Notes: generated from the sequence alone by a model not told the origin. Positions 1-42,258 are shown, numbered from the stretch's first letter. The stretch is 64,000 bases of DNA from Patescibacteria group bacterium (GCA_041650515.1 JBAZLA010000001.1:221866-285865), one strand, 5' to 3'. Program-made: numbers and translations.

Positions 1-72
1 GCCGAAGATGGTTTGCGCTGGAAGAATGATCGCCGTTTTGTCTTAAAATCGCGGCCCGATTTGATTCTTTGA
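1..72 (+). CDS. 3' end of a CDS cut by the window start; product unknown
   Basis: Frame 1 is open from the window edge (…AEDGLRWKNDRRFVLKSRPDLIL) to TGA at 70-72. Confidence 0.3.
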   Translation, partial: AEDGLRWKNDRRFVLKSRPDLIL

Positions 73-427
73 GTTAGTGACATAAACTTAACCCTATTAT
101 AATGAATTGTGATAAAAAAAGATAGTTGGGCCAAACAAAAAGAAAGCCCGTTTGTAGCTTCCTTTTTGAGTGGATTTTAATTCTATTCTTCGTCCTCTTC
201 AGTGTTTAGGTCAGTGGCCGAGTCTAAATCATCATCGGCCTCTGATTTTTCCTCATCATTGATGTCTTCGTCCATAGAAGAACCATCATCCTGAGAGTCA
301 TCATCATAGCTAAAAGTCATAGGTTTAGCTTATTTTTTAATAAAATCACCGCAGTTAAGGGTGATATTTAGTAATGATAGCAGATTATTCAAATTAAGTC
401 AAGAGGTAAATGCTATTAAAATGTTAT

Positions 428-901
428 TTATAGAGTGATATCCTGGGTGGCGCAGATTGCTGTTGCCAGGGCATCAGCGGCGTCGTCGGGGCTGGGAATA
501 TTTTTTAAATTGAGCAAAATTTTGACCATTTTTTGGATCTGGCTTTTCTCGGCTCGGCCGTAGGATGTAACCGCTTGTTTAATCTGGAGCGGTGTATATT
601 CGACGATCGGGATATTAGCTTGAATGGAGGTTAATAGAATTACCCCTCTAGCCTGACCAACCATCAGGGCTGTTTTAACATTTTTGCAGAAAAAGAGTTC
701 TTCGATGGCGATTTTGTTAGGTTGATATTTTTTAATTAAGGCTTTGAGCTCTCGGTGGATTATATTTAGTCGGTCAGCGAAATTTGTCTTGGCTGGAGTT
801 TTGATAACACCAAAAGTAATTAGCGATAGTTGGTTACCTTGTTTGCTAATCAGACCGTAGCCAGTTGAGGCGACGCCGGGATCAATACCCAAGATGATCA
901 T
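428..901 (-). CDS. ruvC: Crossover junction endodeoxyribonuclease RuvC
   Basis: 157 aa; N-terminus MIILGIDPGVASTGYGLI with the RuvC catalytic Asp motif; length and conservation typical of RuvC. Confidence 0.9.
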   Translation of the reverse strand: MIILGIDPGVASTGYGLISKQGNQLSLITFGVIKTPAKTNFADRLNIIHRELKALIKKYQPNKIAIEELFFCKNVKTALMVGQARGVILLTSIQANIPIVEYTPLQIKQAVTSYGRAEKSQIQKMVKILLNLKNIPSPDDAADALATAICATQDITL

Positions 902-905
902 TGGT

Positions 906-1997
906 TTATTTGATTTTATTTAACTTGCCAGAAGCAAAGATAAACTCGTAGTCACCAGCCGGGCAGTTAGCCGCCGTGTTTTTAATCTGGTATTTTAGGA
1001 TACTATTATCTAAGTAGGTGACAATAATGTCGTCGATTGGTTCGATATTTATTTTAGTTGTTGTGGGGTCGACGGCTGTACAAGGCAGAGGGACGTTGGC
1101 GGTTTTGTTTTGATTGAAGAAGGTGAAATAACCAGGTTCTTCTCCCATCAGATCCCAGGTAGATTGGCTGACCACAGTGTTCTCGTCGGCCGAGAAGGTG
1201 ATGGTTGGGTTACAACCGCCAGTGATTATGGTCTTACCAGTGGTAGATGATACTAGCCCAGCGCCGCAACCTTCGAAGACGCTGTTGTTATAGGCGAGAT
1301 AATTTTTTTTAGGGCTGAAAACCAGCTTTTGTTTTTTACCGTCGGTGGTTAAGACCGAAAAAACCTCAGCATTAAGAGCTAAAACTTTATTACCTTCGGC
1401 GTTACGGCCACGAAAGGATAGTCTTTTAAAAGTGATGGTGCCCTTAGTTTGATTGTTATAAATACCGTCTTGATAAACATCAATAATATCTTTTTCTGAG
1501 AGGCATTTATCAAATGGACTATTGAGATTATATTTTTTATTGATCGTCGGACATTGGTCAGATTCTACAAGTTTTGACCAGTAGACCTTGTTGACATCTT
1601 TTTGGTAGATAGCGACGACGTTCTGGCTGTAGGTTATTTTATAAGTATTGGGTGCGGTTTCTCCCGAGGCGGCTTCTTGGTAAGGCTCAACTTTGGTAAT
1701 TTCGCCCCAGTCTTTAGGTTTGGGGATTGATTTTTCATCCAGCATAATAAACTCGGTCTTTGGTTCGGGGACGGCGGCGGGTGTGTTTTCAAGAGTGGCT
1801 ATTTGTTTTTCGAGTTTGCTAACTATTTGTTGATAGCTACTTTTAACCGTATTGATGTTTTCTCGTTTGGTATTGTCTTGTAAGTTAAAGTATTGAACTA
1901 AACAGTAGGCTCCGCCGCCGATGATCAGCGCTGTGGCACTGGCGGTTATAACCATTAACCAAGTCTTGGTTATTTTGGATTTGGCTTTCCTGGGCAT
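906..1997 (-). CDS. Hypothetical membrane-anchored extracellular protein
   Basis: 363 aa ORF with a basic N-terminus followed by one TM helix (WLMVITASATALIIGGGAY); remainder hydrophilic with several Cys; no family recognised. Confidence 0.65.
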   Translation of the reverse strand: MPRKAKSKITKTWLMVITASATALIIGGGAYCLVQYFNLQDNTKRENINTVKSSYQQIVSKLEKQIATLENTPAAVPEPKTEFIMLDEKSIPKPKDWGEITKVEPYQEAASGETAPNTYKITYSQNVVAIYQKDVNKVYWSKLVESDQCPTINKKYNLNSPFDKCLSEKDIIDVYQDGIYNNQTKGTITFKRLSFRGRNAEGNKVLALNAEVFSVLTTDGKKQKLVFSPKKNYLAYNNSVFEGCGAGLVSSTTGKTIITGGCNPTITFSADENTVVSQSTWDLMGEEPGYFTFFNQNKTANVPLPCTAVDPTTTKINIEPIDDIIVTYLDNSILKYQIKNTAANCPAGDYEFIFASGKLNKIK

Positions 1998-6010: not shown

Positions 6011-7654
6011 ATGAAAATGATCCATAAGATTGAGAATTTTTTTGAGGAAAGCCATTATATTTGGTATTTTTTTATTTTTATTTTAGCTTTTTTTGTTTTT
6101 GGTTTTTTACAGTCGGCGCCCAGGTTTATGGATCCCGACTCGTTCTATCATGCCAAGATGGCAGTGCTATTGCGCGACCAGGGAGTAGTAACCAATTTCC
6201 CGTGGTTACCCTGGACAGTTCTAAATGATTATTATATTGACCAGCATTTTTTGTATCATGTTTTTTTGTTGCCCTTTGTCACTGTTCTCAACCCGTTGGT
6301 TGGTATTAAGTTGGCCACGGCGGTTTTTGCTGCTTTATTTTTGGTAACTTTCTACTGGTTTTTAAAGAAAAATCAAGTTAATTGGGCTTTGATTTTTACT
6401 TTATTTTTGTTTCTGACTAAGCCGTTGGTTTTTCGAATTAATCTAGCTAAGGTGCCGGCTTTGTCGCTGATTTTTCTCTTAATCGGGTTTTATTTTATTG
6501 TTCATAAACGCTATTGGTTCCTTTTTTTGTTTTCCTTTTTTTATGTTTATCTTTATGGCGGTTGGCCACTGATTTTGGTAGTTTTATTCTTTTACCTTTT
6601 GGTTTCGGTGGTGGCTGACTACTTGGCTGGCCGCCAGGAGCATCGACGGCAATTAGACAGTCACTATTATTTATTAATGATCAAGAAACCCTTGTTTGAT
6701 TTTTACCTGCTTTTGTCAGTTATCTTTAATCGCGCTTACCTCAAGTTAGTGGGTTCTTGCTTATCGGGTTTAGCCGTTGGTCTTATCTTTAATCCTTATT
6801 TTCCCAAAAATTTTAGGTTTTATTGGTACCAGTTGGTCCAGATCGGTGTTATTAATTTTCGCGATAAGGTTCGGGTGGGGATGGAGTGGCTACCCTATAG
6901 CTTTCAGTCGCTTTTGCTTGATAATTGTTTATTACTAATTTTATTATTAGTAGCGATGGCTCTTTTTGTTATTAATATCAAGAAACAAAGCCGTTTAGTT
7001 TGGGTGTCTTTTTTGTTGTCGCTATTTTTTCTGATTATTACTTTTAAGTCGCAACGCTATATTGAATACTTTATTCCTTTTGCTGTTATTTATTGTGCTT
7101 TGGTTGTTAGCCCGTATTTGTCCTCGCACCGGTTAAGACAGTATTCTAACTGGTGGCAGAATCTTGGTGCCAAAAAAACCGCTCTAGCTGTCAGTTTGGG
7201 TATATTTTGGTTTATGGCTATTGTGATGCTGGCGAGTAAAGACTTAGGTAACGTTTGGTATCTCTATCAAAATAGCGGCATTCCACTAAGAACGATGGAA
7301 CAAAGTAGCCAGTGGTTAGCTAATAATGTTTCACCGGGGGAAATAATTTTTCATAGTGATTGGGATGAGTTTCCACTTCTCTTTTATTACAATAGCAATA
7401 ATAATTATATCGCCGGCCTAGATCCGACTTTTATGTATAGCGCCGACCCGAAGCTCTATAAACTATTTGAAGCTATCACCGTTGGTAATTTAAAAACTGG
7501 TTTAGCAACCATAATCCAAAATGATTTTAAAGCTAGTTATGTTTTAGTTAATAAGACCGACCACCAAAGTTTAAAAATGACTTTTGAGTCGGCTAATCAT
7601 TTTGAACCGATGTATGAAGATGATGAAGCCAAAATTTATCAGATCAGTCTTTGA
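6011..7654 (+). CDS. Polytopic integral membrane protein, GT-C-fold glycosyltransferase-like (PMT/ArnT-like); speculative
   Basis: More than 10 predicted TM helices plus a C-terminal soluble domain. Start moved to the internal ATG at 6011 (MKMIHKIENFF). First of four consecutive large membrane proteins. Confidence 0.6.
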   Translation: MKMIHKIENFFEESHYIWYFFIFILAFFVFGFLQSAPRFMDPDSFYHAKMAVLLRDQGVVTNFPWLPWTVLNDYYIDQHFLYHVFLLPFVTVLNPLVGIKLATAVFAALFLVTFYWFLKKNQVNWALIFTLFLFLTKPLVFRINLAKVPALSLIFLLIGFYFIVHKRYWFLFLFSFFYVYLYGGWPLILVVLFFYLLVSVVADYLAGRQEHRRQLDSHYYLLMIKKPLFDFYLLLSVIFNRAYLKLVGSCLSGLAVGLIFNPYFPKNFRFYWYQLVQIGVINFRDKVRVGMEWLPYSFQSLLLDNCLLLILLLVAMALFVINIKKQSRLVWVSFLLSLFFLIITFKSQRYIEYFIPFAVIYCALVVSPYLSSHRLRQYSNWWQNLGAKKTALAVSLGIFWFMAIVMLASKDLGNVWYLYQNSGIPLRTMEQSSQWLANNVSPGEIIFHSDWDEFPLLFYYNSNNNYIAGLDPTFMYSADPKLYKLFEAITVGNLKTGLATIIQNDFKASYVLVNKTDHQSLKMTFESANHFEPMYEDDEAKIYQISL

Positions 7655-9068
7655 TAAATTAGTTCAACCTAGTTCTCGGCTGTTTTTATGGGGGCTGGTT
7701 TTAGCTGTTTTATATTTCTCATTTTATTTGGTCAAAATTGTTTTATTAAAGAACGACCAAAATAATTATCCGCCGAATAGTAGCTGGGCGGTGGCGGTTT
7801 TTGCCGGGTTGGTTGTTGTTTTATTAATAGTTTATTATTGGTCATCCAGAGTATTTTTGGAATATCCGAAACTGAAGCTGATTTTGTTTTTTTCAGCAGT
7901 GTTTAGCGTAATTCTGCTGTTTATCCAACCCTTTTGTTCGGCTGATCTTTTTCACTACATTTTATACCCCAAGATCGTCTTAGTTTATCACCATAACCCT
8001 TATATTACGCCATTGATTGACTACTCTGGAGATATTCTGTTTCGGCTCGGTAGTCCGATTAAGATGTGGCTTAATAGTCCCTTAGTTTATGGTCCAGTTT
8101 GGTTGCTGCTGTCGATAGTCTTCACTTTCTGGTCTCTGAGTAGTGTTGGTTTGGCCCTGTTTAGTTTTAAACTAATGGCCACCATTTTCTTTTTTGGGTG
8201 TTTATTATTGGTTTATAAAATATTAGATCATATTGGTAGTCGGAATAAAAATTTGGCCGTGGCCTTATTTGCTTGGTCGCCGTTGATTTTAATTGAGTCG
8301 GTTAACAATGGCCATAATGATATCGTGATGCTTTTTTTCTTGTTGCTGGCGTTCTTTTGTTTAGTCAAAGAAAAGTATTTTTGGGTGTTGCCTATTATAA
8401 TATTGTCTATCCTCATTAAGTATGTCCCGATTATTTTGGCACCGTTTATATTTTTATATTTATGGCGTCGTTGTCAGCGTGACCAGAAGCGGATACTAAT
8501 TTGGTCAGTATTCTTTTCTTTATCACTGTTTGTTTTGTTTTATTTACCATTCTGGCATGGCTGGTCGACGCTCCATGGTGCCATCTTTATGTCAGTTGAG
8601 TACAATCTGAAGGGCTTATCAATCTTGGGCTATATTATTCAGCCATTTTATGAATGGTTAAAAATGGACTTATTCTTCTCAGGGTTGGGTCCGCTAGGTT
8701 TTATTAGTTTAATTTGTCGTTTGGTTTTTGCTTATTTTTACTTCTATTTGCTCTTTAAAGTTCGTCCAAATAATATTAATGATTTATTAAAGCTTTGTTG
8801 CTGGGTCGTTGGCTTGGTTTTTTTGACTATCACTTTTTATTTACAGCCATGGTATTTTGTCGTACCATTAGGTCTGATGGTCTTAGTTGACTCTTGGCCC
8901 AAACGCTGGTTTATCTTGATTAATCTGTTTGCTTTCCTGATTTATTTTTTCTTTGTCTTCGAACTATTCTTTGTTTTTTGTCTGTTTTTTGTCTTAGATC
9001 TTTATTTTAATTGGTTTTTAATCAAAGAAATTAGACGAATAAAAAATGTTATCCTGGTTAAAAAATAA
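7584..9068 (+). CDS. Polytopic integral membrane protein, GT-C-like; start uncertain (7584/7614/7623)
   Basis: 494 aa; very hydrophobic multi-TM protein; overlaps the upstream gene end by 41-70 nt depending on start. Confidence 0.6.
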   Translation: MSRLIILNRCMKMMKPKFIRSVFDKLVQPSSRLFLWGLVLAVLYFSFYLVKIVLLKNDQNNYPPNSSWAVAVFAGLVVVLLIVYYWSSRVFLEYPKLKLILFFSAVFSVILLFIQPFCSADLFHYILYPKIVLVYHHNPYITPLIDYSGDILFRLGSPIKMWLNSPLVYGPVWLLLSIVFTFWSLSSVGLALFSFKLMATIFFFGCLLLVYKILDHIGSRNKNLAVALFAWSPLILIESVNNGHNDIVMLFFLLLAFFCLVKEKYFWVLPIIILSILIKYVPIILAPFIFLYLWRRCQRDQKRILIWSVFFSLSLFVLFYLPFWHGWSTLHGAIFMSVEYNLKGLSILGYIIQPFYEWLKMDLFFSGLGPLGFISLICRLVFAYFYFYLLFKVRPNNINDLLKLCCWVVGLVFLTITFYLQPWYFVVPLGLMVLVDSWPKRWFILINLFAFLIYFFFVFELFFVFCLFFVLDLYFNWFLIKEIRRIKNVILVKK

Positions 9069-10683
9069 AAAAGAACGGTTGATTATTAGTTTGATTATAC
9101 TAGCTGTTGTTTTGGTCTCAATAGCGCCTCTATTATATGGCTATTTTATTGCTGGTCCTCAAGATCATTTTTTGGGCGCGCCGTATCAGCTGGCTGCTGA
9201 TTATCCGGTCTATTTGTCAATGATTGAGCAGGGCCGTCAGGGTAATTTGGTGATGAAGAATCTATATACTCCTGAGCTACAAAATCCGTCATTAATATCG
9301 CCTTTGTGGCTACTGCTGGGTTTGGTTGGCCGGGTGACTAATTGGTCGAATGTTTTTCTTTTTCATTTGGCCCGAGTTATTGCTGCTATCTTTTTTTTGT
9401 ATTTCCTTTATTTTTTTGTTAGTTGTTTTTTTCAGAAGTTTCAATCTCGGTTGATGGTTTTTGTTTTATTAATATTCAGCTCAGGTTTAGGCTCGTTTTT
9501 TTTACCAGGAGAGAACGTCTGGGATGTCTCGGTTATATTTTTAAAAACGCCGACTGATTTTTGGGTTTCTGAGTCCAATACGTTTTTGACGATTTATCAC
9601 TCGGCTCTGTTTATTCTATCGCAGCTTTTAGTGGTGACTATTTTTTATCTATTTATTAATCGGTTGAGCAATCGTCGGATATTAGTTTTGGTTTTGTTAT
9701 CTTTAATTTTGGGAATTTTCCACCCTTACGATTTAGTTACCATTTACGCAGTCCTTTTTGTTTATTTGGTTTTCAATTTTGCTACTGATAATAAAGAATG
9801 GCACAAAATTAAAGCTTATTTGCCGATGGTTTTTGTTTCCAGTCTAGCCCTGGTTTATTATTATGTTATCACCAAATCAGAGATAGCCATTGGTGGTTGG
9901 TCAACTCAAAATTATAATATTTCGCCGCCATTGTTTGCTTATATTACTGGTTATGGTCTGGTATTATTTTTGGCCATTCTAGGCACTTTTTGGGTGATTA
10001 GGGGAAAGAAGGATCAATTTTATTTTTTGGTGATTTGGTTTTTGACGTCGGCTTTTTTATTGTATGCCCCAATCGCTTTCCAACGTCGGTTGAGTAGTGG
10101 CTTACATATACCCCTGGCTCTTTTAGCCGGGTTAGCTATCGAAAAAATTTGGCTCGAGACCAAACACCATTTTGTGTGGCGTTCGGTCTTAGCTTGGATT
10201 TTTATCCCGCTATTATTTTTGTCTAATATCGCCGTTATCAATCAGGATATTCATAACTATAATCAAAGAGATTATCCTTATTTTTTTCCTCAAGAATATT
10301 ATCAAAGCTTTTTATGGCTTAAAGATAACGTTGATCCAGCCGAGGTGACTCTGGCGTCGCCATCGATTGGTAATTTGATTCCAGCTTTCGCCGGTCGGAC
10401 TGTTTATGCTGGCCATGGTCACCAAACGGTTACGTATGCAGCTAAGATTCAGGAGCTAAGTAGCCAACTGATGGTCAGTAATACTAGCGACCAGGAACGG
10501 TTTGGGTTTTTTAAAAAATACCAAATTGAGTATTTTTGGTATTCGGATCGGGAGAAAATGATTAGCCAGTTTGATCCAGCTGCCGCGAGTTATTTAGAAC
10601 AAATTTATAGCAACTCCCAGGTAGAAATTTATCGAGTTAAAGATACTTATTCGCCAGCCGGCTGTGGTTGTCAGAAGTATTAG
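9046..10683 (+). CDS. Polytopic integral membrane protein, GT-C-like
   Basis: 545 aa; multi-TM N-terminal two thirds, soluble C-terminal domain. Confidence 0.6.
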   Translation: MLSWLKNKKERLIISLIILAVVLVSIAPLLYGYFIAGPQDHFLGAPYQLAADYPVYLSMIEQGRQGNLVMKNLYTPELQNPSLISPLWLLLGLVGRVTNWSNVFLFHLARVIAAIFFLYFLYFFVSCFFQKFQSRLMVFVLLIFSSGLGSFFLPGENVWDVSVIFLKTPTDFWVSESNTFLTIYHSALFILSQLLVVTIFYLFINRLSNRRILVLVLLSLILGIFHPYDLVTIYAVLFVYLVFNFATDNKEWHKIKAYLPMVFVSSLALVYYYVITKSEIAIGGWSTQNYNISPPLFAYITGYGLVLFLAILGTFWVIRGKKDQFYFLVIWFLTSAFLLYAPIAFQRRLSSGLHIPLALLAGLAIEKIWLETKHHFVWRSVLAWIFIPLLFLSNIAVINQDIHNYNQRDYPYFFPQEYYQSFLWLKDNVDPAEVTLASPSIGNLIPAFAGRTVYAGHGHQTVTYAAKIQELSSQLMVSNTSDQERFGFFKKYQIEYFWYSDREKMISQFDPAAASYLEQIYSNSQVEIYRVKDTYSPAGCGCQKY

Positions 10684-12572
10684 GGTAGCGTAATGGTTTG
10701 GATTATCTCTTTTTGATCAATCATATTTTTAACCCCGCGCCAGTCGCTGATTTCTAGACCGCCGCTGATTTTGACTAGGTTGATAGTTATTTGATCGGCG
10801 GTTTTTTGTATTTGCTCTGGTAGAACCAGTGAGTAGTCAAAACTAATTAGCTCATCAGGTTTTAATTCGTTGGCTTGATATAGGCCATAAGCAAAAGGCA
10901 AAAAACGAGAGTAAATTGTTTGGTCGTTAGAATCTTTGATTACTAACTCTAATTCGTAGTTGTCATCAATCATCTGGCTAGTTTGAAATTGACAAGAAAT
11001 CGGTAGTCGATAGTCAATAGCTGATGGCTGATAACAAGTAAAGATGTCAGCTGGCGGTTGGCTCTCAGTGATTGTGTAAAGCTGCTGTTGGTCGCTAGGA
11101 TAGTTTTTTTGCCAAAGGCTGATTAGGTCTTCAGTTTTGACCAAACCGAAGTCACCTTGATTGATGGTTTGTCTTAGACGGGCCGCGCCATCAGAATAGA
11201 ATGGTTGGTAAAAAGCGACAAAATTAAATTGGAGGTCATAGGTGATGAAGTCAGCGGAGTCGATTAATAAATATTCAGTATCAGCTGGCAGTTGATAGTC
11301 CAAGTTAGAATATTGGTGTTTGCCAATAAAAGCGTAGTGTAGGCTATAAAGCGTTGGTCGCGAAGAAAGAGGGGGCAAAAATTCGTAGGTAGCGGCGATA
11401 GCAGCCTGGGGCGGGATTTGATTTAGGAACTCTTGTTTAATCGGTTTAAGATTAATAGCGTCAGCTTGTTCGATTCTAATACCTAATCCCCAAGCATTAT
11501 AAATATTAGTAACTAGCCAAAGGATGATAATTAGTTGGCGATGCTTGTGATATTTGGTCAGAATTAGCTTTAGACTATAGACCGTGGCAATAAATAAGGG
11601 AATAACAAATAGGGCACCATAGTGAGTCTGGAAAACCAGAGCCCCGCCGCCTGGTCCGCCAATGGTCATCTGAGCTAGATTCCCTAGCAGTAATATCAGG
11701 TAGTGGGGGTTGAGTAGTGGCAGGAAGAGAAAGGGTGTGAGAAAACCCAAGACCATTTCTAAGTTGGCATAGGTCGATAGGTGGCTTAGAAGTAATAGTG
11801 GGTGAGAAAAAATATTTTTTATTATTTCTGGTATGGAGTTGCCTAGCCAGCCGTAATAAAATAAAAATTTATAATTACCAGCTGGGTTAAGGCTGGCGAT
11901 AATTTTTAATGAGGCCCAGAACCAGAATATGCTTAGAGCCACTAGGGTAGTAACCCAGGACCAGAGAATTCTTTGTTGGTGTTTATGACAATCAACGATA
12001 ATAAACAGCGCTAGACAAAAAATATACAGCGACACATCCTCGCGGGTCATTAAAGCCAGGATGATGAAAGTGACAAAAGGATAAAACTGGCGTTTTTGGT
12101 AAAAGTAATAAGCGAAGAAGAGTAAAAAAACAGCCAAAGGTACAAGGTGAAACTCATAGAGATTGATATTGTGGATGAAGGGATTGAATAAATAGGCAAA
12201 AGGCAAGAGCAAATAATACTCGGGTTTGGCAAAAACACTTTTGGCAATTAGGTAGAGTGGCCAGGCCGCTAGGGCTAAAAAAATGGTTTGGAGAATCAAA
12301 AGAGTAATGGGCGATTGATAGATTAGATAAAAAGGTAAGAGCAGCAGTACTATGGGATTAAAATGATCAGCTAGATATGATGGTTCGTGGATTGAAGCGG
12401 CTAAGAGCTGACCGTGGGCGCTATTATAAAAGACCTGGTTGATGATGGCCAGATCGAGAGCGTTATAGCCGAAGTTAGAGTACTTATAGATGCAGATTGA
12501 GCTAAAGATAATAATATAAAGGCCAATTATCAACCAGAGCAGTAGCCAATGGTGTTTTTTAAATATTGACAT
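10680..12572 (-). CDS. Large polytopic membrane protein with C-terminal extracytoplasmic domain
   Basis: 630 aa; about 12 TM helices then a ~250 aa hydrophilic tail; convergent with the three upstream membrane genes. Confidence 0.6.
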   Translation of the reverse strand: MSIFKKHHWLLLWLIIGLYIIIFSSICIYKYSNFGYNALDLAIINQVFYNSAHGQLLAASIHEPSYLADHFNPIVLLLLPFYLIYQSPITLLILQTIFLALAAWPLYLIAKSVFAKPEYYLLLPFAYLFNPFIHNINLYEFHLVPLAVFLLFFAYYFYQKRQFYPFVTFIILALMTREDVSLYIFCLALFIIVDCHKHQQRILWSWVTTLVALSIFWFWASLKIIASLNPAGNYKFLFYYGWLGNSIPEIIKNIFSHPLLLLSHLSTYANLEMVLGFLTPFLFLPLLNPHYLILLLGNLAQMTIGGPGGGALVFQTHYGALFVIPLFIATVYSLKLILTKYHKHRQLIIILWLVTNIYNAWGLGIRIEQADAINLKPIKQEFLNQIPPQAAIAATYEFLPPLSSRPTLYSLHYAFIGKHQYSNLDYQLPADTEYLLIDSADFITYDLQFNFVAFYQPFYSDGAARLRQTINQGDFGLVKTEDLISLWQKNYPSDQQQLYTITESQPPADIFTCYQPSAIDYRLPISCQFQTSQMIDDNYELELVIKDSNDQTIYSRFLPFAYGLYQANELKPDELISFDYSLVLPEQIQKTADQITINLVKISGGLEISDWRGVKNMIDQKEIIQTITLP

Positions 12573-12687
12573 AATTTTTAGTTTATCTTACACTTTCCTT
12601 TGCTATATTATAGAATATCAATTGAAAAATAGCTAAGACTTTGCTAGAATACCGGTACCTGTTTTTTAAAAGAATCGAAGGTAGTAA

Positions 12688-12759
12688 GCGGGTGTCGTAT
12701 AAAGGTTATTATGTATCCTTGCCAAGGATAAGACGGCGGTTCGATTCCGCTCACCCGCT
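12688..12759 (+). tRNA. tRNA-Gly (anticodon GCC), atypical D-arm, no encoded CCA
   Basis: Acceptor GCGGGTG/CACCCGC; anticodon stem TATCC/GGATA with loop TTGCCAA; T-arm GGCGG-TTCGATT-CCGCT. D-arm pairing is poor, so this could be a pseudo-tRNA. Confidence 0.5.
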
Positions 12760-12793
12760 TAGTGCCTTTGATTAATAATAATGTTACCTTTAA

Positions 12794-12877
12794 GCCCAGG
12801 TGGTGAAACTGGTATACACGAGGGACTTAAAATCCCTTGCCCTTACGGGCGTGAGGGTTCGATTCCCTCCCTGGGCA
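12794..12877 (+). tRNA. tRNA-Leu (anticodon TAA), long variable arm, no encoded CCA
   Basis: Acceptor GCCCAGG/CCTGGGC; anticodon stem AGGGA/TCCCT with loop CTTAAAA; variable stem-loop GCCCTTACGGGC; T-arm GAGGG-TTCGATT-CCCTC. Confidence 0.85.
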
Positions 12878-13075
12878 TTTGAAATTTAGGCAAGCTGGGA
12901 GTAACGCCGACTTAGTTAGTCAAGGGTTCCCACCCTACGGGTGGTCCTCCGAAGGGGGAGATTCCCTCCCTGGGCATTTGAAATTTAGGCAAGCTGGGAG
13001 TAACGCCGACTTAGTTAGTCAAGGGTTCCCACCCTACGGGTGGTCCCCCGAAGGTGGAGATTCCCTCCCTGGGCA
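12878..13075. repeat. Two tandem 99-bp direct repeats, each ending with the 17-nt 3' end of tRNA-Leu (GATTCCCTCCCTGGGCA)
   Basis: Unit 1 is 12878-12976 and unit 2 is 12977-13075; they differ at 2 positions. The 17-mer also ends the tRNA itself at 12861-12877. The 67-aa track ORF here is a repeat artefact. Confidence 0.9.
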
Positions 13076-13156
13076 CCATTAATGAACAGAAAATAAGCTT
13101 CTGTTTTTTTGTTTAGTTCTGTTGTATAATATCTTCAAAATAAAAAATTAAATAAT

Positions 13157-14047
13157 ATGCCAGCAGAGGATAACAAAGTAAGAAAACAAAAAAGCAACAA
13201 AGTAACTGGTTTAGCTAATGGACGGAGGAAGAGTAAAATTTCACCGGTTCTAGTTAAAACAAAAATTAAGACAAAGCCGTCGGTAAAAACTAGACTAGTT
13301 CAGCCAGCGCCTGTCGCGCTAGTCACTCTTAATAAATCTAGTTTATCTAATATCTCTACCCGATTGGACAAGAAAAAAATTACTATTTATCACTGGCCAG
13401 TGGTGGTGGCTTTTGTCGCTTTTGTTTTTGTGATTACTAGTTTGGTTATATCCATTAGTTTAAGTAACAGTCAACAGTTGACTGGTACAAAATTGATTAT
13501 TGAGGAAACCGCGTCTCTAGACACAGGAATATTGACCGTGGTCGCTGATTGTCAGAGTGATAGTGGTTGTGGACCTAAATATAAATTATGGTCACCAGAT
13601 TTTAAAAATTTTGTACCATTAGTTGGTGATATTAGTGATCAAGATAATGGTCTATTGATAAGAGTGGTTGGCCAGATTGTAGAGTTACCAGCGGTTGAGT
13701 ATGATCCAGCCAGCTATCGTGGGTCGACTCAGGCTTGGCAAGTGACGAGCTATCAAGTTTTAGATAAAATTTCCTATCGTGATTTTCTGGTTCAGAAATC
13801 ACGTGAGTATACTAATAAGAATTATCTGTGTTTTTTAATGCCCGGTCGTCAGGGTTCTTTTAGCCAAGGTATGCAGACGATTTTTGGTTGGGCGTTAGTT
13901 GATAATCAACCGATTCTTAAAGTTAGAATGACCGATATTTATAGCGTAGATGATCCGCAGCCTTATTATGAGCTTTGGTATGATGGTAATAGCGGCGAGT
14001 TGGTTAAGGAAATTTTTAGTCCAGTTGATGGTAATTTTTGTAACTAG
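13157..14047 (+). CDS. Hypothetical membrane-anchored protein (Lys-rich N-terminus, one TM, extracytoplasmic domain)
   Basis: 296 aa ORF; TM segment WPVVVAFVAFVFVITSLVISISL; no recognisable family. Confidence 0.6.
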   Translation: MPAEDNKVRKQKSNKVTGLANGRRKSKISPVLVKTKIKTKPSVKTRLVQPAPVALVTLNKSSLSNISTRLDKKKITIYHWPVVVAFVAFVFVITSLVISISLSNSQQLTGTKLIIEETASLDTGILTVVADCQSDSGCGPKYKLWSPDFKNFVPLVGDISDQDNGLLIRVVGQIVELPAVEYDPASYRGSTQAWQVTSYQVLDKISYRDFLVQKSREYTNKNYLCFLMPGRQGSFSQGMQTIFGWALVDNQPILKVRMTDIYSVDDPQPYYELWYDGNSGELVKEIFSPVDGNFCN

Positions 14048-14656: not shown

Positions 14657-15736
14657 ATGCCTAGAAAAAAACAAACAATAATCAAGCCGGCCGTCGCTGA
14701 TGACGGTCTGGAGCGAGTTACTAGTCCCGAGGAAAAGAATGAGGAGAGAGTTTTTGATTTAATTCTTCGGCCTCAGAATTTAGGTGAATATATTGGTCAG
14801 GAGAAGGTCAAAAAGAATCTAGAGATTTTTATGGCCGCGGCGCGGCAGCGCGGCGAGCCGATTGAGCATGTTTTACTCTACGGCCCGCCAGGACTGGGCA
14901 AAACTACCCTGGCGCATATTATTGCTAAAGAGATGGGCGTGAGTATCCGGGTGACTAGTGGCCCGGCGATTGAGCGTTCGGGCGACCTAGCGGCGATTTT
15001 AACCAATCTGGGCGAAGGTGACGTCTTATTTATTGATGAAATTCATCGTCTTAACAAGGTGATTGAAGAAATTCTGTATCCAGCGATGGAAGAGCATGCT
15101 CTAGATATTGTTATCGGCAAGGGACCATCGGCTCGCACACTACGGCTGCAGCTACCCCATTTTACAATTATTGGCGCGACGACTCGCATCGGCAGTATCT
15201 CCTCGCCACTGCGCGACCGGTTTGGGAATATCTATCATCTCAATTTTTATGAAGACCAAGAAATCCAACAGATTTTAGATCGCTCGGCCAAGATTTTAGG
15301 AGTTGGTTTAATCGACGAGGCTTGTCAGCAGATCGCCAGCCGGTCGCGTCAAACGCCACGGATTGCTAATCGATTGCTTAAACGAGTGCGCGACTATGCG
15401 GAAGTTAAAGCTGATGGTAAAATAGATAACGAGGTTGCTCAAGCTGCCCTGGCTATGTTGGAGGTAGATCATTTTGGTCTGGACGCGGTTGACCGTCGCT
15501 TATTAAAAACGATTATTGAAAAGTTTAATGGTGGACCAGTTGGGTTGGGCACGTTAGCGGCGGCTATTTCGGAGGAGATAGAAACTATTGAAGAAGTCTA
15601 TGAGCCATTTTTGATGCAGCTGGGATTATTAAATCGGACACCGCGTGGTCGGCTGGCGACTAAATTAGCCTATGAGCATCTTGGTAAAATTCCGCCTAAG
15701 AGTTTGGCCGACGACCAGTCACAATTAGGGATTTAA
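14657..15736 (+). CDS. ruvB: Holliday junction branch migration DNA helicase RuvB
   Basis: 359 aa; Walker [10 protein letters not shown]; RuvB N-terminal block [22 protein letters not shown]. Confidence 0.95.
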
Positions 15737-16663: not shown

Positions 16664-16704
16664 AAAACCCGCACATCCGGTAGGACCGAACGGCGGGGGT
16701 TTTA
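16664..16704. terminator. Weak bidirectional hairpin (CCCGC…GCGGG) with A-run before and T-run after, between convergent genes
   Basis: AAAAAAACCCGCACATCCGGTAGGACCGAACGGCGGGGGTTTTAG lies between the + gene ending 16613 and the - gene ending 16735. Confidence 0.35.
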
Positions 16705-16734
16705 GTTTCCAGAGAGCGAAGAGGTCGAGCCGGA

Positions 16735-17769
16735 TTAAGTCCTGGCGCTGTCTCGTTTTTCGTTGCGCCAGAGCCGGTCGAGATCTTCCAAATAGCGGGG
16801 CTCCACCTGCTCGGCCTCGTAGTCGAGCTGGGCCGGGAACAGCAGGTTGCCGAGCGCCATCTGATCGGTGAGCGATTTGCCCTGGGTCCAGCCGAGGAAG
16901 ACGCGGGGGTCACGAACTGCGAACGTGGTCGAGGGCTGCTCGACCAGATCATGGCTCATGCCCACTTTCTTGTCTCGGAAGAACAAGCAGAAGTCGCCAC
17001 CCGCCGTGCGAACATTGGCTGTGAACTCGGGAGCTTCGGCCAGGCGCGCTTGGTTTCTCGGGCTCTGGTTGGCCAGATCGATGAATCTCGTCATGGCTTC
17101 GAGAACACTCGGCATCGCCTCGGCGTACTCCGGCACCGGTTCGAAGGTGGGAACGGTGATCGCCCTGCTCCAATCGAGTTCATCATCGAAGAGCGGACTC
17201 TGGGCGATCTGAGTGGCCGAGAGCTCGGCCTGGGGGACGACAAACACGTCGGTGATCAGGCCTTCGCGTGTTCGCTTGAAGACCACTTTGATCGGCGTGT
17301 CGCCGCCGTAGATGCCCTGGCGGATGATGCCGGTGGTGGTGCGAATCGCCAGGGCGATCGCGCTGGTCGCTTGGGTCTGGTCGTCCTGCAGGTAGAAGAA
17401 ACCGAAGCCGAACGGCGCCTTGCCATGCATCCGAGCCGGTGCGAAATAAGTGATGACCGGTTCGGCGTAGGCGGCCATGCCGACGTCAGGTAGGTCGATC
17501 AACTCCAGTGCGGCATAGATGCATTTCGGGTTGGTGCACTTGGCCACGAAGGCAGGGGCATAGACCTGGCCGCATTTTGGGCATTGGGCGCCCACCAGCC
17601 GGGCTTCCCGTAGGAGCGGGATGAGCCAGCGGCTTTGTTCTCCGGCAGTCACCATCTGGGGAAAGCCGAAGAGGCGGGGTTGGAGTAGAACTTCGATCCC
17701 GTCGCCGAGTTGTTTGAGCTCGGGGACGAGGGCCATAATCGCTTCAAGCAATTGTCTGTCGATGTACAT
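16735..17769 (-). CDS. Zn-ribbon/OB-fold (DUF35-like) protein with C-terminal extension; thiolase partner
   Basis: Start set to MYIDRQLL (ATG at 17769, GGAGG RBS upstream). CxxC…CxxC zinc ribbon CPKCGQVYAPAFVAKCTNPKC. About 62% GC. Immediately downstream of the thiolase-like gene. Confidence 0.6.
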   Translation of the reverse strand: MYIDRQLLEAIMALVPELKQLGDGIEVLLQPRLFGFPQMVTAGEQSRWLIPLLREARLVGAQCPKCGQVYAPAFVAKCTNPKCIYAALELIDLPDVGMAAYAEPVITYFAPARMHGKAPFGFGFFYLQDDQTQATSAIALAIRTTTGIIRQGIYGGDTPIKVVFKRTREGLITDVFVVPQAELSATQIAQSPLFDDELDWSRAITVPTFEPVPEYAEAMPSVLEAMTRFIDLANQSPRNQARLAEAPEFTANVRTAGGDFCLFFRDKKVGMSHDLVEQPSTTFAVRDPRVFLGWTQGKSLTDQMALGNLLFPAQLDYEAEQVEPRYLEDLDRLWRNEKRDSART

Positions 17770-17783
17770 GGTGGCTGGCCTCC

Positions 17784-19040
17784 TCACGCCGCTTCGAGGT
17801 GGAAGATTTGGACGCCGCCATAGACAGCGCCATCGCCGCCGGTTCCATGGACGAGGCCCCATTCGACTTCGTTTTCGACCATGTACCAATAGACCTCGTT
17901 GGCGCTCATGATGTTTGAAGCGCCGACTGCATGGCCGCAGCCATACAGGCCACTGGCGGGGTCGATAACCCATTTCGGGTTCGGACCGACGACCAGACCG
18001 TCGTAGACGATGTCCTGGACATGCCCGGGTTGGCACATCTTCAGGGCGAGGAAGCTGAGCAGGGTTTGGCCGCCAAAGGCGCCATGATGTCCGATCACAC
18101 CCACTTGATCCGGGCCGATGCCGGCCATATCGTAGGCGCGTTCGGCAGCGATGCGGTGGGAGCGAAATTCGCTGATGTCTTGGAACTGAGGGCCGCGGCC
18201 GGGAATGGTTGATTCACAGGCGTGGCCGACGCCGGCGACGCGAACAAGCGGTCGACCGGTTTGCGAAGCGATCTCTTTGGCCCGGGCGTGGTTGGCCATG
18301 CCGATGACGGCTCCGCCTTCCGAATAAACGCAAACTTCGCCGAGCCGAGTATCGCCGATGATCGGACGGGAGTCCATGATCCAGTCGGCGGTGACCTGTT
18401 CCCCGTAGCGTTGGGCTTTCGGGTTGTTCCGGCTGTGGGAGCAGATCTCCTCGACCATCAGGGCGCGCGCTCGCAACTCGAGATCGCGGGGGTACCGGTA
18501 CTTGTAGCCGTTGATTCTGAATTGGTAGCTGCCGGCGGCGCTGAAGCCCAGCTTGTCGTGCAGCCAGTAGAGCCAGGAAGCCGCGATGGTATCGATGACC
18601 ATCGGGGTGGTGGAGTGGGAGAGCGGGTCGTAGGCGTCTTGGCATTTCTCTACGCCGAGAGCCAGACCGATCTGATGGCGGCCGCTCCGAATAGCATCGT
18701 ACAGCCGGGTCATCGCGGCAAGGCCGGTTTGGCCGCCGGTGGCGACACGGTCGCATTCGATGTTGTTCGTGCCGAGCACCATGTTGGCGAACGACTCGGC
18801 GATGAAGTGGTTCTGGAAGCTGGGATTGTACATCGCATAGGAGATGAAGTCGACCAGACTCATGTTGAACCACGGCCCCATGCGTTCACAGAAGGCCGCG
18901 ATGAGATCCTGGGTGATGCCCAGGAAAGTCTTGTCGAAGTATCTCCCTTTCATTGGCGTGATTTCAGCGCCAAAGACGAAGACGTTTTCCATGGTTACAG
19001 TCCTTTCGTTACGGGTCTCCGTTCGGGGTTTTAGATACAT
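17784..19040 (-). CDS. Thiolase-like protein (SCP-x/Ltp-type thiolase superfamily)
   Basis: 418 aa; thiolase-fold blocks (…GQTGLAAMTRLYDAIRSGRHQIGLALGVEKC…, C-terminal GCGHAVGASN…); GC-rich; same operon as the DUF35-like gene. Confidence 0.75.
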   Translation of the reverse strand: MYLKPRTETRNERTVTMENVFVFGAEITPMKGRYFDKTFLGITQDLIAAFCERMGPWFNMSLVDFISYAMYNPSFQNHFIAESFANMVLGTNNIECDRVATGGQTGLAAMTRLYDAIRSGRHQIGLALGVEKCQDAYDPLSHSTTPMVIDTIAASWLYWLHDKLGFSAAGSYQFRINGYKYRYPRDLELRARALMVEEICSHSRNNPKAQRYGEQVTADWIMDSRPIIGDTRLGEVCVYSEGGAVIGMANHARAKEIASQTGRPLVRVAGVGHACESTIPGRGPQFQDISEFRSHRIAAERAYDMAGIGPDQVGVIGHHGAFGGQTLLSFLALKMCQPGHVQDIVYDGLVVGPNPKWVIDPASGLYGCGHAVGASNIMSANEVYWYMVENEVEWGLVHGTGGDGAVYGGVQIFHLEAA

Positions 19041-22562: not shown

Positions 22563-22660
22563 AATTATGGAGAGGTGGCTGCTGAGCGGTTTCCGCCTAC
22601 GTCCCAATTTATTGGGACTTCGGCGGACAAGGAAAGTGCAGCCCTGCCCCGTAGCAGAGC

Positions 22661-22747
22661 GGAGACGTGTCAGAGTGGTCGAATGAGCCGCACTCGAAAT
22701 GCGGTGTACCCATAAGGGTACCGGAGGTTCGAATCCTCCCGTCTCCG
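22661..22747 (+). tRNA. tRNA-Ser (anticodon CGA), long variable arm, no encoded CCA
   Basis: Acceptor GGAGACG/CGTCTCC; anticodon stem CCGCA/TGCGG with loop CTCGAAA; variable arm GTACCCATAAGGGTACC; T-arm GGAGG-TTCGAAT-CCTCC. Flanked by the 14-nt inverted repeat CCCCGTAGCAGAGC / GCTCTGCTACGGGG. Confidence 0.85.
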
Positions 22748-22881
22748 CTCTGCTACGGGGGTCGAGAAAAAGTTGTTTTAGTGAAAGTCCTCGCGAGTTT
22801 GAATCTCGCCCCTTACGCTTAGTGCTGGACTTCACCGTTAGTTAGAAAGATTTAAATAATATTAACAAACTATTTGTTTTT

Positions 22882-34202: not shown

Positions 34203-35592
34203 TTTTATTTATTCTTACTTTATCGCAAAACTTCTTTTTTTCTGCAACATTAAGACAACTTCCATCGCAGTTTTTTTGGCAAGTATTTGAAGTATTATAA
34301 CAAGACGGTTCGATCTGATCTCTGTTCCTCAGACATCGATAGCCAGCGCACTTGTCGTTGCTAATTGAATAATCATTTTTTTGACTTATAAAACCGTCGT
34401 TATTGTGCCAAGTGAAATAATATTTTAACAAGCAGGAAAAATTATCGCACGATGATAGTTCGATCCCGCAATCACTAGTTTCCGCGATGTTATCTTTCTG
34501 CTCGGAAAAAATTGACCCGTTGTTTATACCGCAATAAATATCGTACAAACCATGATAAGGGGAACAAAAATCTTTTTGATGAGATGTGCAGGCGGTATTG
34601 TTAACTAAAGTGATATCCTTTACTCCATTAAGTACAATATTATTTGAATGATCGGTCTGCCCAAACTCATTAATGTATCCTCTTGAATCAATAATGTTAT
34701 TTTTTATAACAGCGTTAGATACTAATTCTGTTGGACGTGACCAATCTCCAACGGTAATGCCATAATTACTTTTGGCGATTTCGTTATTTATAATGTCAAC
34801 GTTTTTTGAATTATAGATACTTATTCCTTGATAAAAATTTGATATTCTGCAGTTTCTAACAACTACATTTTCTCTAGCAGGATGCCCAACATAATTGCCA
34901 ATATAGAAACCTAAACCGTTGTAGCTTGGTTTTATTTCCACCATTTTATGGCCCTGGCAATCAACAATCACATTGTTTTGACGGATGCCAATACCCTCGC
35001 CAGAAATACTTAAATCTTCAGTGAGTAGATATGTTCCCGGCTCTTTGATATCTAGGGATTCGTTTCGCGAAGATATTTCAAAAAACGGTGTACTGCACTT
35101 TTTTTGGCTGTCTACGCAGGAACCGCTGCCGGTTGTGCACCAGTAACAGCCAGATCTCCCGCACGCATTAATGTTTGATTTTTTTTCGCAAGAGGTTGGT
35201 ACTAGTTGATTAATCATAACATAGCTAAGTTGACCCTGGCTTTCGAGTTTTTTAAATGTACTTTCATAATCTAACGAGCCAGATGATGTCTTTTCCTTAT
35301 TAGGAAGAGCTGCCTTGGCTATGCCAATGTTGCTACTTTTGCCCGCTTCAAGAACTGGCTGGTTGTCGGCATTAGGAAGAGCTGCCTTGGCTATGCCAAT
35401 GTTGCTATCCCCATCCACTTCAGAGATTGGTTGACTATTTTTTATTTTATCGTTTTTATAGATAATAATTCCCAAGATCGTCGTTGCAATTACTATTGTT
35501 AAGACAATCAACCCAGTGATGGCTTTTATTTTATTGGACTTCGGGACTCGCAATATTGGTGTTTGGTTTAGTGGCATCATTGATTCATCCAT
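34195..35592 (-). CDS. Membrane-anchored right-handed parallel beta-helix repeat protein (pectate-lyase/NosD-like fold)
   Basis: 465 aa; N-terminal TM; repeated beta-helix rungs (VVVRNCRISNFYQGISIYNSKNVDIINNEIAKSNYGITVG…NNIIDSRGY); internal 37-bp DNA duplication (35299-35335 and 35371-35407) encodes NIGIAKAALPN twice. Confidence 0.65.
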   Translation of the reverse strand: MDESMMPLNQTPILRVPKSNKIKAITGLIVLTIVIATTILGIIIYKNDKIKNSQPISEVDGDSNIGIAKAALPNADNQPVLEAGKSSNIGIAKAALPNKEKTSSGSLDYESTFKKLESQGQLSYVMINQLVPTSCEKKSNINACGRSGCYWCTTGSGSCVDSQKKCSTPFFEISSRNESLDIKEPGTYLLTEDLSISGEGIGIRQNNVIVDCQGHKMVEIKPSYNGLGFYIGNYVGHPARENVVVRNCRISNFYQGISIYNSKNVDIINNEIAKSNYGITVGDWSRPTELVSNAVIKNNIIDSRGYINEFGQTDHSNNIVLNGVKDITLVNNTACTSHQKDFCSPYHGLYDIYCGINNGSIFSEQKDNIAETSDCGIELSSCDNFSCLLKYYFTWHNNDGFISQKNDYSISNDKCAGYRCLRNRDQIEPSCYNTSNTCQKNCDGSCLNVAEKKKFCDKVRINKTN

Positions 35593-38172: not shown

Positions 38173-38883
38173 ATGGTGGAAACTAAGATAATAAAAAGAT
38201 CGATCTGGCCCAGGCTGATTCTGGTGTTGTTGGTTGTTTTGGTAATTATTATTTTTAATTTTACCGTGGCTCGGGCTGGTTTTGATGGTTATACTTGTGA
38301 AAGTCAGTCGCAGCAGGCAACAATTTGTGTTGGTGGTTGCACCAGCGATTGTCTCAGTTGTTCTGAGACTTCGGATTGTTGTTTAGATGGTGGCAGCAGC
38401 TGTGATACTGGCAGTACCACTGATACTGGCAGTACCACTGATACTGGCAGTACCACTCCGCAAGCATTACCAAAGTGTCAGGCCGGTTGGTATTCTAAAC
38501 CAGTTGGTTTGTTCGCTGATGTTGATCCTAATTGTTACGCCTGTGGTGATTGTACTCTGTGTGATTTTTTGGCGGTGGCTAATGGTTTAGCTAAAATTAT
38601 TTTTTCGGTTTTTGGTGGTGTTGCTTTGGTGATGTTTCTATGGGGTGGTTTAAGCTTTATTTTGGCCGGGGGAGCGGCTGAGAAGATTACTAATGCCAAG
38701 AAGATTCTAATTAGTGCGGTTGTGGGTATTGTGATAATTTTAGCCGCTTGGGAAATAGTTCATTTGGTAATCATCGTTTTTTCTACTTCGCCAGAGCAAT
38801 TACATAAGGGTAATTTTGTCACTGAGTTATTTTCGAATAAAGAAGGTAAGGGTTTACCTTGGAACAATCCGACCTGTAAATAA
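38173..38883 (+). CDS. TrbC/VirB2-like (T4SS pilin-like) family protein, paralog 1, with Cys-rich and GSTTDT-repeat insert
   Basis: 236 aa; N-terminal TM; C-terminal block FGGVALVMFLWGGLSFILAGGAAEKITNAKKILISAVVGIVIILAAWEIV shared with the ten downstream genes. Confidence 0.7.
   Translation: MVETKIIKRSIWPRLILVLLVVLVIIIFNFTVARAGFDGYTCESQSQQATICVGGCTSDCLSCSETSDCCLDGGSSCDTGSTTDTGSTTDTGSTTPQALPKCQAGWYSKPVGLFADVDPNCYACGDCTLCDFLAVANGLAKIIFSVFGGVALVMFLWGGLSFILAGGAAEKITNAKKILISAVVGIVIILAAWEIVHLVIIVFSTSPEQLHKGNFVTELFSNKEGKGLPWNNPTCK
38404..38457. repeat. 18-bp in-frame tandem repeat x3 (GATACTGGCAGTACCACT; encodes GSTTDT)
   Basis: Three perfect copies head to tail inside paralog 1. Confidence 0.9.
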
Positions 38884-39406: not shown

Positions 39407-39766
39407 ATGAACAAAATTATTAAAGTATCGACCTTAGTTTTCCTTTTGGCCCTGTTAGTTGTCCCACATTTTGCTGGTGCCATCGACTTGGGCTTGGGTT
39501 ATGCCACGGCCACTGGTTTGACCAGTACGGATATTCGCGTAACCGTTTCTCGGATTATTAACGTCGCCCTAGGTCTTTTGGGTGTTATCGCAGTGGTGAT
39601 TATTTTAGTTGGCGGCTTCAAGTGGATGACGGCTGGTGGTAATGAAGAAAAAGTTACCGAAGCTAAAAAATTGATTGCGGCTGGTGTTATTGGTTTAGCA
39701 ATTATCTTAACTGCTTATGCCATCGCTGCCTTCGTGATCAACTCCTTGCTCAAGGCCGTACAATAG
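39407..39766 (+). CDS. TrbC/VirB2-like pilin-like family protein, paralog 3
   Basis: 119 aa; C-terminal LGVIAVVIILVGGFKWMTAGGNEEKVTEAKKLIAAGVIGLAIILTAYAIAAFV. Confidence 0.75.
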   Translation: MNKIIKVSTLVFLLALLVVPHFAGAIDLGLGYATATGLTSTDIRVTVSRIINVALGLLGVIAVVIILVGGFKWMTAGGNEEKVTEAKKLIAAGVIGLAIILTAYAIAAFVINSLLKAVQ

Positions 39767-39822
39767 TTAGTTTGAGTAATCATTGAAGTGTTTAATGCCT
39801 CAGCTGGGTAATTAAATTTTTG

Positions 39823-39937
39823 GGGGCCCAGCCCCTTTCTTACTCACGATGATCATAGTTTCGCCTAATAGGATAATTTGGCGCTAGCTGTAGGTAATAT
39901 TAACTACCCGTGGTTGAGAAAGGGGCGGGCCCCCCTA
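39823..39937. repeat. GC-rich ~30-bp imperfect inverted repeat with 55-bp spacer between pilin-like genes 3 and 4
   Basis: TTTTGGGGGCCCAGCCCCTTTCTTACTCACG … CGTGGTTGAGAAAGGGGCGGGCCCCCCTAAA; about 27 of 31 arm positions are complementary. Confidence 0.7.
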
Positions 39938-39948
39938 AATAAGCATTT

Positions 39949-40353: not shown

Positions 40354-40366
40354 TTTTGTATAATAC

Positions 40367-40777: not shown

Positions 40778-40784
40778 TAATATT

Positions 40785-41243: not shown

Positions 41244-41248
41244 TTTAT

Positions 41249-42244: not shown

Positions 42245-42258
42245 GTTTATCTAAATTT

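Follow-up and report, generated by a model that had tools for sequence, protein, structure and literature searches.

Genomic islands residing at tRNA genes are marked at their ends by the regenerated tDNA and by the displaced fragment of the same gene (PMC4383910). In the corresponding island survey, a 3' fragment was present in 3760 of 3919 islands and a T-stem-region attP in 1836, and the att cores of integrases typically start in the T-loop region and stop at the end of the gene (PMC4383910). At the ssrA gene of Dehalococcoides, 20-bp repeats have been described in arrays, with the T-loop as the insertion point, and the intervals devoid of integration genes have been regarded as decayed or cis-mobilizable (PMC3146451). 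The decay of ICEs and IMEs to elements retaining only their att sites, as well as their tandem accretion at the target, has also been reviewed (PMC5704250).

Here we describe a short repeat array lying at the 3' end of a tRNA-Leu(TAA) gene in a 64,000-nucleotide stretch of DNA from an uncultured Patescibacteria group bacterium (the whole of the analysed stretch is hereafter referred to as the window). To our knowledge, few mobile elements of Patescibacteria have been characterised so far.

The array shares with the Islander islands and prophages an intact tRNA gene (12794-12877) followed by cognate, same-strand direct repeats of its own 3' end (at 12960 and 13059), each running from a canonical sublocation in the T-loop region (the fourth T-loop base) to the gene 3' end (the discriminator A), with the distal copy carrying the native flank. 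It differs from them in having neither integrase nor cargo, in the size of the insert (82 nt vs kilobases) and in the lack of a matching attP among the sequences searched; the only ORF found between the tDNA and the fragment, of 67 aa, belongs to no family. Since neither an integrase gene nor the content of an island was found there, the feature is to be called a remnant and not an island.

The likeness to the Dehalococcoides ssrA locus concerns the presence of several repeats of about 20 bp, derived from the 3' end of an RNA gene, placed downstream of it in the same orientation and with the insertion point in the T-loop. However, the ssrA intervals are different multi-gene islands, many of which carry a serine integrase module, whereas the two intervals of the array are near-identical 82-nt copies, which points to duplication rather than to repeated integrations. 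CIMEs, which keep att-like repeats, have lost the recombination genes and are known in tandem arrangements at the target gene (PMC5704250), are similar in these respects; yet they are kilobase-scale and their parent element is recognisable. The array shows, at the sequence level only, attL-like and attR-like repeats in the absence of integration and transfer genes, and no parent element (ICE, IME or prophage) homologous to its insert was recognized among viral contigs, phages, plasmids and fetched loci. Lastly, tandem duplication of the minisatellite type accounts for a 99-bp period equal to the repeat-to-repeat distance and for the occurrence of one or two copies, but it covers the amplification of the array alone and not the origin of the 17-mer / 82 nt / 17-mer structure. 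We consider, with moderate confidence, that the feature is a very small new example of the known att-type tRNA-gene footprint, secondarily amplified.

Anatomy of the array and of its tRNA operon

The window harbors on the + strand a two-gene tRNA operon in which tRNA-Gly(GCC) precedes tRNA-Leu(TAA), both genes being recognized by ARAGORN and Rfam (Table 1). The promoter-like site upstream of the operon is a candidate by consensus match alone, matching 10 of the 12 consensus positions. The AT-rich hairpin and T-run lying downstream of the array are a probable operon terminator, judging from sequence and predicted fold, even though the consensus terminator scan, which needs at least three G-C pairs, did not call the hairpin. 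Lying between these two signals, the array likely falls within the tRNA transcript, and its position between tRNA-Leu and the terminator-like hairpin would make it a 3' trailer, probably transcribed and removed on maturation of the tRNA 3' end.

Table 1. Coordinates of the repeat array, of the tRNA operon embedding it and of the neighboring genes in the window.
Feature	Coordinates	Strand	Basis
DUF2079 membrane protein gene	10680-12572	-	
Promoter-like site, TTGAAA / 17-nt spacer / TAGAAT, TG extension, upstream of the tRNA operon	12622..12650	+	Consensus scan
tRNA-Gly(GCC), operon gene 1, without encoded CCA	12687..12760	+	ARAGORN; Rfam tRNA model 59.8 bits
tRNA-Leu(TAA), cloverleaf intact, followed by TTT and not CCA	12794..12877	+	ARAGORN; Rfam tRNA model 60.2 bits, full model
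Repeat copy 1, attL-like core	12861..12877	+	Exact 17-mer; Rfam alignment for position
Insert copy 1, 82 nt, GC 0.54	12878..12959	+	Sequence, GC content, fold, hairpin scan
Repeat copy 2	12960..12976	+	Exact 17-mer
Insert copy 2, with C at 13047 and T at 13055, where it departs from copy 1	12977..13058	+	
Repeat copy 3 + CCA, attR-like	13059..13078	+	Exact 17-mer; CCA at 13076-13078
AT-rich hairpin ACAGAA / TTCTGT + T-run, putative operon terminator	~13085..13111	+	Sequence, fold
296-aa protein gene, no Pfam family	13157-14047		
RuvB gene	14657-15736		

A previous inspection of this DNA (hereafter the sequence-only reading) had noticed two further copies of the 17-nt end of tRNA-Leu (at 12960 and 13059), each closing a 99-bp unit otherwise unrelated to the tRNA, and only two substitutions between these units. 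The exact search for the 17-mer (GATTCCCTCCCTGGGCA) agrees with this, revealing exactly three copies in the 64-kb window (starting at 12861, 12960 and 13059), and no match turned up in 100 dinucleotide-preserving shuffles, even with a tolerance of two mismatches. Tandem Repeats Finder delimited the array at 12861-13075, with a period of 99, 2.2 copies and 98% matches. The two units (12878-12976 and 12977-13075) are identical at 97 of 99 positions, and the two substitutions were located at 12948 (T) vs 13047 (C) and at 12956 (G) vs 13055 (T).

The boundaries of the repeat are sharp. According to the Rfam alignment, it begins at the fourth T-loop base (between TTC and GATT) and terminates exactly at the discriminator A; copy 1 comprises the final four nucleotides of the T-loop, the 3' strands of both the T-stem and the acceptor stem, and the discriminator A. 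TTT comes directly after copies 1 and 2, CCA and the terminator-like hairpin after copy 3 alone, which suggests that copy 3 with its CCA is probably the native tRNA 3' end, displaced. Moreover, at the junction between unit 1 and unit 2 the order is that expected of an attP, i.e., insert end, core, insert start. A faint similarity to the tRNA reaches upstream of the 17-mer, where AGGG, three mismatches and the 17-mer make up 21 matching positions out of 24; the claim that the unit is otherwise unrelated to the tRNA is refined in this respect, while it holds for the 82 nt as a whole, as reported below.

The insert has a GC content of 54%, vs 18-27% for the flanking spacers and 41% for the whole window. 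When its 82 nt were aligned to the first 67 nt of tRNA-Leu, the score was not significant, being equalled or exceeded in 1438 of 2000 shuffles, and neither ARAGORN nor the tRNA model of Rfam (E up to 10) found a tRNA or pseudo-tRNA in 12878-13075. Likewise, the comparison of the units with Rfam 15 gave nothing near the gathering score, but only chance-level matches not exceeding 16 bits (E above 1). The minimum-energy fold of the unit is cloverleaf-like, with three hairpins inside an 8-bp closing stem; it is not more stable than that of shuffled sequences (z = +0.29, 116 of 200 shuffles being at least equal). Insert copy 1 contains two adjacent hairpins (12930-12944 and 12945-12959), each with a 6-bp stem and a 3-nt loop, and the stretch AGGG / GGAGATT / CCCT retains a T-arm-like hairpin of 4 bp. 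The two substitutions distinguishing the units affect both partners of one predicted pair, which is U-G in unit 1 and C-U in unit 2.

Repeat search, BLAST and a covariance model alike gave no further copy of the unit in the 64-kb window, so that within it the unit does not behave as a dispersed extragenic repeat (REP/MITE-like). The covariance model of the unit matched a twin hairpin in the syntenic relative L012 (see below), but a twin-hairpin repeat family was rejected, and over 434 kb the distinct twin hairpins given by a geometric scan numbered only about 7, their contexts being unrelated (e.g., a secE leader in the locus L031). The sequence-only reading had named two findings that would speak against it, i.e., the unit being broadly dispersed and unrelated to tRNAs, or being invariant in number and folding into a conserved RNA; the window holds no further copy, the fold is as stable as expected by chance and without an Rfam match, and the units are two in the window and one in another assembly.

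Concerning the coding potential, a Pfam scan of 20 window ORFs, among them those lying within about 5 kb of the array, revealed no recombinase or integrase, in agreement with the earlier statement that no integrase lies nearby. The 67-aa ORF over the array has a TTG start and remains open because 99 is divisible by three. It belongs to no Pfam family, and its only matches in the protein library are repeat-against-repeat and concern long SprB-like repeat proteins (about 22 bits per match); this ORF is, as had been stated, an artefact of the repeat. The insert gave no BLAST match in phage and plasmid collections, and five exact patterns covering the insert interior and both junctions matched nothing in IMG/VR; no donor element or attP junction was found in any of these collections. 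No 82-nt template or parent was revealed by BLAST among the 50-odd fetched loci.

Two IMG/VR contigs, L008 (702-724) and L009 (6371-6393), contain the exact 23-nt tRNA-Leu 3' end with no surrounding tRNA gene, and in L009 GCCCAG… stands before the 23-mer and might form a mini-helix with it. Both were rejected as donors, being high-GC and having no integrase nearby among the ORFs examined.

Other features of the window were also recorded. The tRNA-Ser(CGA) gene (22661-22748) is flanked on both sides by a perfect 14-nt inverted repeat (22647-22762; CCCCGTAGCAGAGC upstream and GCTCTGCTACGGGG downstream), which in the precursor would lengthen the acceptor stem to about 21 bp, giving a helix that might serve in processing. 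A GC-rich island (16671-18930), reaching a GC content of 0.72 per 60-nt window vs a window mean of 0.41, spans two minus-strand ORFs, one thiolase-like and the other with a weak, sub-threshold match to a rubredoxin-like zinc ribbon; it may represent a horizontally acquired block. About 8-10 paralogous ORFs of about 135-160 aa each are arranged in tandem at 39581-43661 with a period of about 460 nt and share 60-75% nucleotide identity. The bacterial class A RNase P RNA (54735-55202, - strand, 163 bits) is 468 nt long vs 367 model positions, which implies about 100 nt of insertions. Two further repeats lie within ORFs, i.e., a perfect 37-nt direct repeat with copies at 35299 and 35371 (72 nt apart; 35299-35407) and a tandem array of three to four 18-nt repeats (38386-38457).

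Copy number and the same tRNA gene in other loci

One unit, vs the two of the window, is present in L001 (ENA ERZ27247363, a k = 141 assembly), which over about 13 kb shows no substitutions outside the array and a single one-position gap. The single unit of L001 corresponds to the second variant (13047 C, 13055 T), which is the sole variant there. Two substitutions in 99 nt separate the units, and the two assemblies have none outside the array; the duplication therefore predates the split between the one-unit and the two-unit states. The former represents either a recent deletion via recombination between the units or a collapse introduced by the assembler. In the Logan data for SRR8542065, both contigs break inside the array region, and one of them (L002) starts at 13017, i.e., at the first 31-mer that includes the variant base 13047. 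This is the start expected of a graph branch between unit variants, so that both variants are present in the SRR8542065 sample. The core structure (17-mer / 82 nt / 17-mer) was found in every assembly, so that the main finding does not depend on the copy number. The variation in the number of units that the sequence-only reading had proposed to look for among strains was thus observed between assemblies, with the reservation that the L001 state may be an assembler collapse.

The geometry consisting of a tRNA end, 65-95 nt and a 17-mer was not found in GTDB one-genome-per-species contigs or in JGI metagenome contigs, so that the structure is private to the species. A probe of 38 nt from the 5' half of tRNA-Leu retrieved 30 metagenome loci (about 24-25 distinct). 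In most of them the terminator comes straight after tRNA-Leu, in several with an encoded CCA in between. The plain order tRNA, CCA, terminator, observed in relatives such as L040, L026 and L037, is the same as that found 3' of repeat copy 3. Among the fetched loci showing tRNA-Leu, the closest by RuvB identity (78%) is L055, where the DUF2079 gene and tRNA-Gly are arranged as in the window and tRNA-Leu lies beyond an intervening gene, with its terminator 11 nt downstream; this is a distant relative with a rearranged locus. An empty site in a close relative was not seen among the loci fetched. The closest DUF2079 relative (L011, 74% identity) stops short of the tRNAs, two further DUF2079 contigs are without them, and the homologues of the 296-aa neighbor turned out not to be syntenic.

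In three other Patescibacteria-type lineages the 3' end of the same tRNA appears to have been separately disturbed. In L019, an exact 23-nt repeat of the 3' end of its own tRNA-Leu, starting from the first T-loop base, lies 183 nt downstream, a few bases upstream of a GIY-YIG nuclease gene and amid a mosaic of tRNA-Leu fragments. In L014 (Ga0210018_1001261), a large serine recombinase gene with Resolvase, Recombinase and Zn_ribbon_recom domains (ORF 6532-8196, + strand) converges on tRNA-Leu(TAA) (about 8052-8140, - strand) and overlaps it in antisense, an arrangement also found in L024 and L032. In L012 (GCA_964393075.1), a syntenic relative whose DUF2079 protein is 50% identical, a self-consistent fragment resembling a T-arm and acceptor (GGGAGTTCGATTCTCCCCCCGGGCA) is located about 50 nt past tRNA-Leu and is non-cognate to that tRNA. 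As far as their sequences allow one to judge, these look like independent events at one hotspot, which is in agreement with the previous suggestion that this tRNA is an integration hotspot. The search for the unit that had been proposed together with it gave nothing in phages, plasmids or IMG/VR.

Some details of these loci deserve mention in their own right. The mosaic of L019 (Ga0265297_10000038, 1-1100, minus strand) is made of tRNA-Leu(TAA) pieces, beginning with a tRNA-Leu-like 5' half split by three GC-rich inserts (28-51 nt), one of which is in the anticodon loop; it continues with the intact tRNA-Leu, the 23-nt repeat of its 3' end and the GIY-YIG nuclease gene, and ends with the anticodon arm and insert repeated over 72 nt, a separate T-arm/acceptor fragment with CCA and a third partial copy of the 3' end. 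The whole looks like a tRNA-plus-nuclease cassette within an older insert-bearing tRNA gene. The arrangement in L014, L024 and L032 resembles that of integrases having the att site inside their own gene; a tblastn search of the insert with the L014 serine recombinase, aimed at a recombinase remnant, matched only the antisense strand of the tRNA, and the candidate was discarded. In L012, the acceptor strand of the fragment (CCCGGGC) is that of tRNA-Leu in other lineages, and the tRNA-Gly/tRNA-Leu leader and spacer (170-1090, minus strand) are crowded with GC-rich hairpins, among which the palindrome CCCGCCCGCC…GGGCGGG is found twice. The trailer of L012 was rejected as a homologue of the unit, showing no significant similarity beyond the tRNA-like tail.

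Origin of the array

The idea that we favor, to which we assign about an even chance of being correct, is that the array is the decayed remnant of a site-specific insertion at the 3' end of tRNA-Leu(TAA), followed by tandem duplication. From the observed anatomy, boundaries and composition of the array, the difference between one and two units and the absence of the unit elsewhere, we infer an integration event, a recombinase, an internal deletion and a mechanism of duplication. According to this scheme, in the starting state tRNA-Leu, CCA and the terminator would have followed one another in this order. An element that brought its own copy of the final 17 nt of the tRNA (from halfway through the T-loop to the discriminator) would have recombined with the gene, restoring a tRNA now without an encoded CCA and shifting the native 3' fragment, with CCA and terminator, downstream. 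Nearly the whole element, the recombinase gene included, would then have been deleted, leaving 82 GC-rich bases between att-like repeats. Unequal recombination or replication slippage between these repeats might have produced the 99-bp tandem array, and further units might be added or removed in the same way.

The sequence-only reading had recognized a footprint of the attL/attR type, and this is supported by the direct repeat, its onset in the T-loop, its end at the last base of the gene and the presence of CCA and terminator past the distal copy only. It had left open two versions of this idea. Stacked scars of separate integrations appear unlikely, the units being copies of one insert identical at 97 of 99 positions; given this near-identity, one insertion followed by tandem duplication is simpler than two integrations. 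As for a tandemly duplicated att-containing remnant, the geometry and the foreign GC content speak for it, while no donor, attP or integrase was found. Two further points weigh against the remnant: an insert of 82 nt demands a near-complete internal deletion sparing both junctions, and a GC-rich, hairpin-rich sequence in a tRNA operon would also suit a functional RNA.

Different explanations have to be weighed against this one. The array might be a repair patch, in which a break at the 3' end of tRNA-Leu (due, e.g., to a homing-type endonuclease) was filled from a foreign or ectopic template and then copied in tandem by slippage. The very small size of the insert and the Pfam scan without integrases fit such an event, as does the locus of L019, with its exact 23-nt repeat just upstream of a GIY-YIG gene in a mosaic of tRNA-Leu fragments; however, Pfam found no endonuclease gene near the array among the window ORFs, no 82-nt template emerged from phages, plasmids or fetched loci, and a random patch gives no reason for a start in the T-loop combined with an exact end at the discriminator. 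We regard a repair patch as rather unlikely. The array might instead be a decayed tandem duplicate of tRNA-Leu, i.e., a pseudo-tRNA of which only the 3' end has been kept identical (by gene conversion, for example). Short shared motifs can be seen by eye in the right order ahead of the 17-mer (GACTTA, CCCTACGGG, AGGG), and plainly decayed tRNA-Leu fragments exist in L019, but GACTTA and CCCTACGGG did not survive the shuffle test, the 82 nt resemble the tRNA body at chance level, the units are blank to ARAGORN and to the Rfam tRNA model, and the 3' flanks differ, being TTT in the proximal and CCA in the distal copy. The step from 17/17 identity to nothing is too sharp for decay: such an abrupt fall to chance suggests a recombination junction rather than the slow decay of a duplicated gene, so that this origin appears very improbable. 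The identity ending at the last base of the tRNA, together with CCA and terminator at the distal copy only, favors a recombination junction over both decay and a repair patch.

Another possibility is that each 99-nt unit is a structured RNA with three hairpins in a closing stem and a 3' end resembling a T-arm and acceptor, which would be made on one transcript with tRNA-Gly and tRNA-Leu; the enzymes maturing tRNA 3' ends would either release it or use it as an element for processing or stability. The units do lie between a promoter-like site and a terminator-like hairpin, as a GC-rich module in an AT-rich spacer; they are predicted to fold into a cloverleaf-like structure closed by an 8-bp stem, the 4-bp T-arm-like hairpin is kept, both inter-unit substitutions fall on the partners of one predicted pair, and L012 has a leader twin hairpin of like geometry as well as a T-arm-like module before its terminator. 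Nevertheless, the stability of the fold is that of shuffled sequences, Rfam gave no match even at E up to 10, and the unit is without homologues on which covariation could be read. In addition, past the tRNA-like tail the unit has no significant alignment with the L012 trailer, such twin hairpins are rare and occur in unrelated contexts, the module is lacking in L055 and most other loci, the variant common to both assemblies has a C-U mismatch in the hairpin and the one-unit state of L001, if real, means that the copy number is not fixed. Altogether, a functional trailer seems to us unlikely, and somewhat more so than a repair patch. The assembly itself might also be at fault, either because the tandem copy is spurious and the true state is one unit or because a longer or variable array is collapsed in L001. 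The single unit of L001 in otherwise identical DNA and the break of both SRR8542065 Logan contigs would fit an artefact, whereas the start of L002 at 13017 fits a branch between two real unit variants and the 17-mer / 82 nt / 17-mer core is present in both assemblies; we therefore deem an artefact improbable.

Significance of the array

The array is a small and probably neutral relic. It is improbable, but worth considering, that the 99-nt unit is a lineage-specific working module, either a small RNA with a tRNA tail or a minute att element. In the former case, the T-arm and the 3' end of the acceptor would have been borrowed, so that the tRNA-maturation enzymes might release or tag the unit from the transcript; in the latter, the element would be extremely small and its copy number might be altered by a recombinase encoded elsewhere in the genome.

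The remnant reading also offers concrete sequences to look for. The unit-to-unit junction (…CCGAAGGGGGA / GATTCCCTCCCTGGGCA / TTTGAAATTT…) could be used in the search for the missing integrative element or phage, and the insert/core/insert junction may be written as the consensus CCGAAGGKGGA-GATTCCCTCCCTGGGCA-TTTGAAATTTAGG. An empty site, deriving from excision or deletion, would read as the tRNA body joined straight to GGGCACCATTAATG. From a practical viewpoint, the 99-bp array, being variable, could act as a strain marker, and it is at the same time an assembly hazard, as shown by the two short-read Logan contigs of one sample that break there.

Finally, the att-like footprint described here and the separate events in other lineages mark tRNA-Leu(TAA) as a recombination hotspot.
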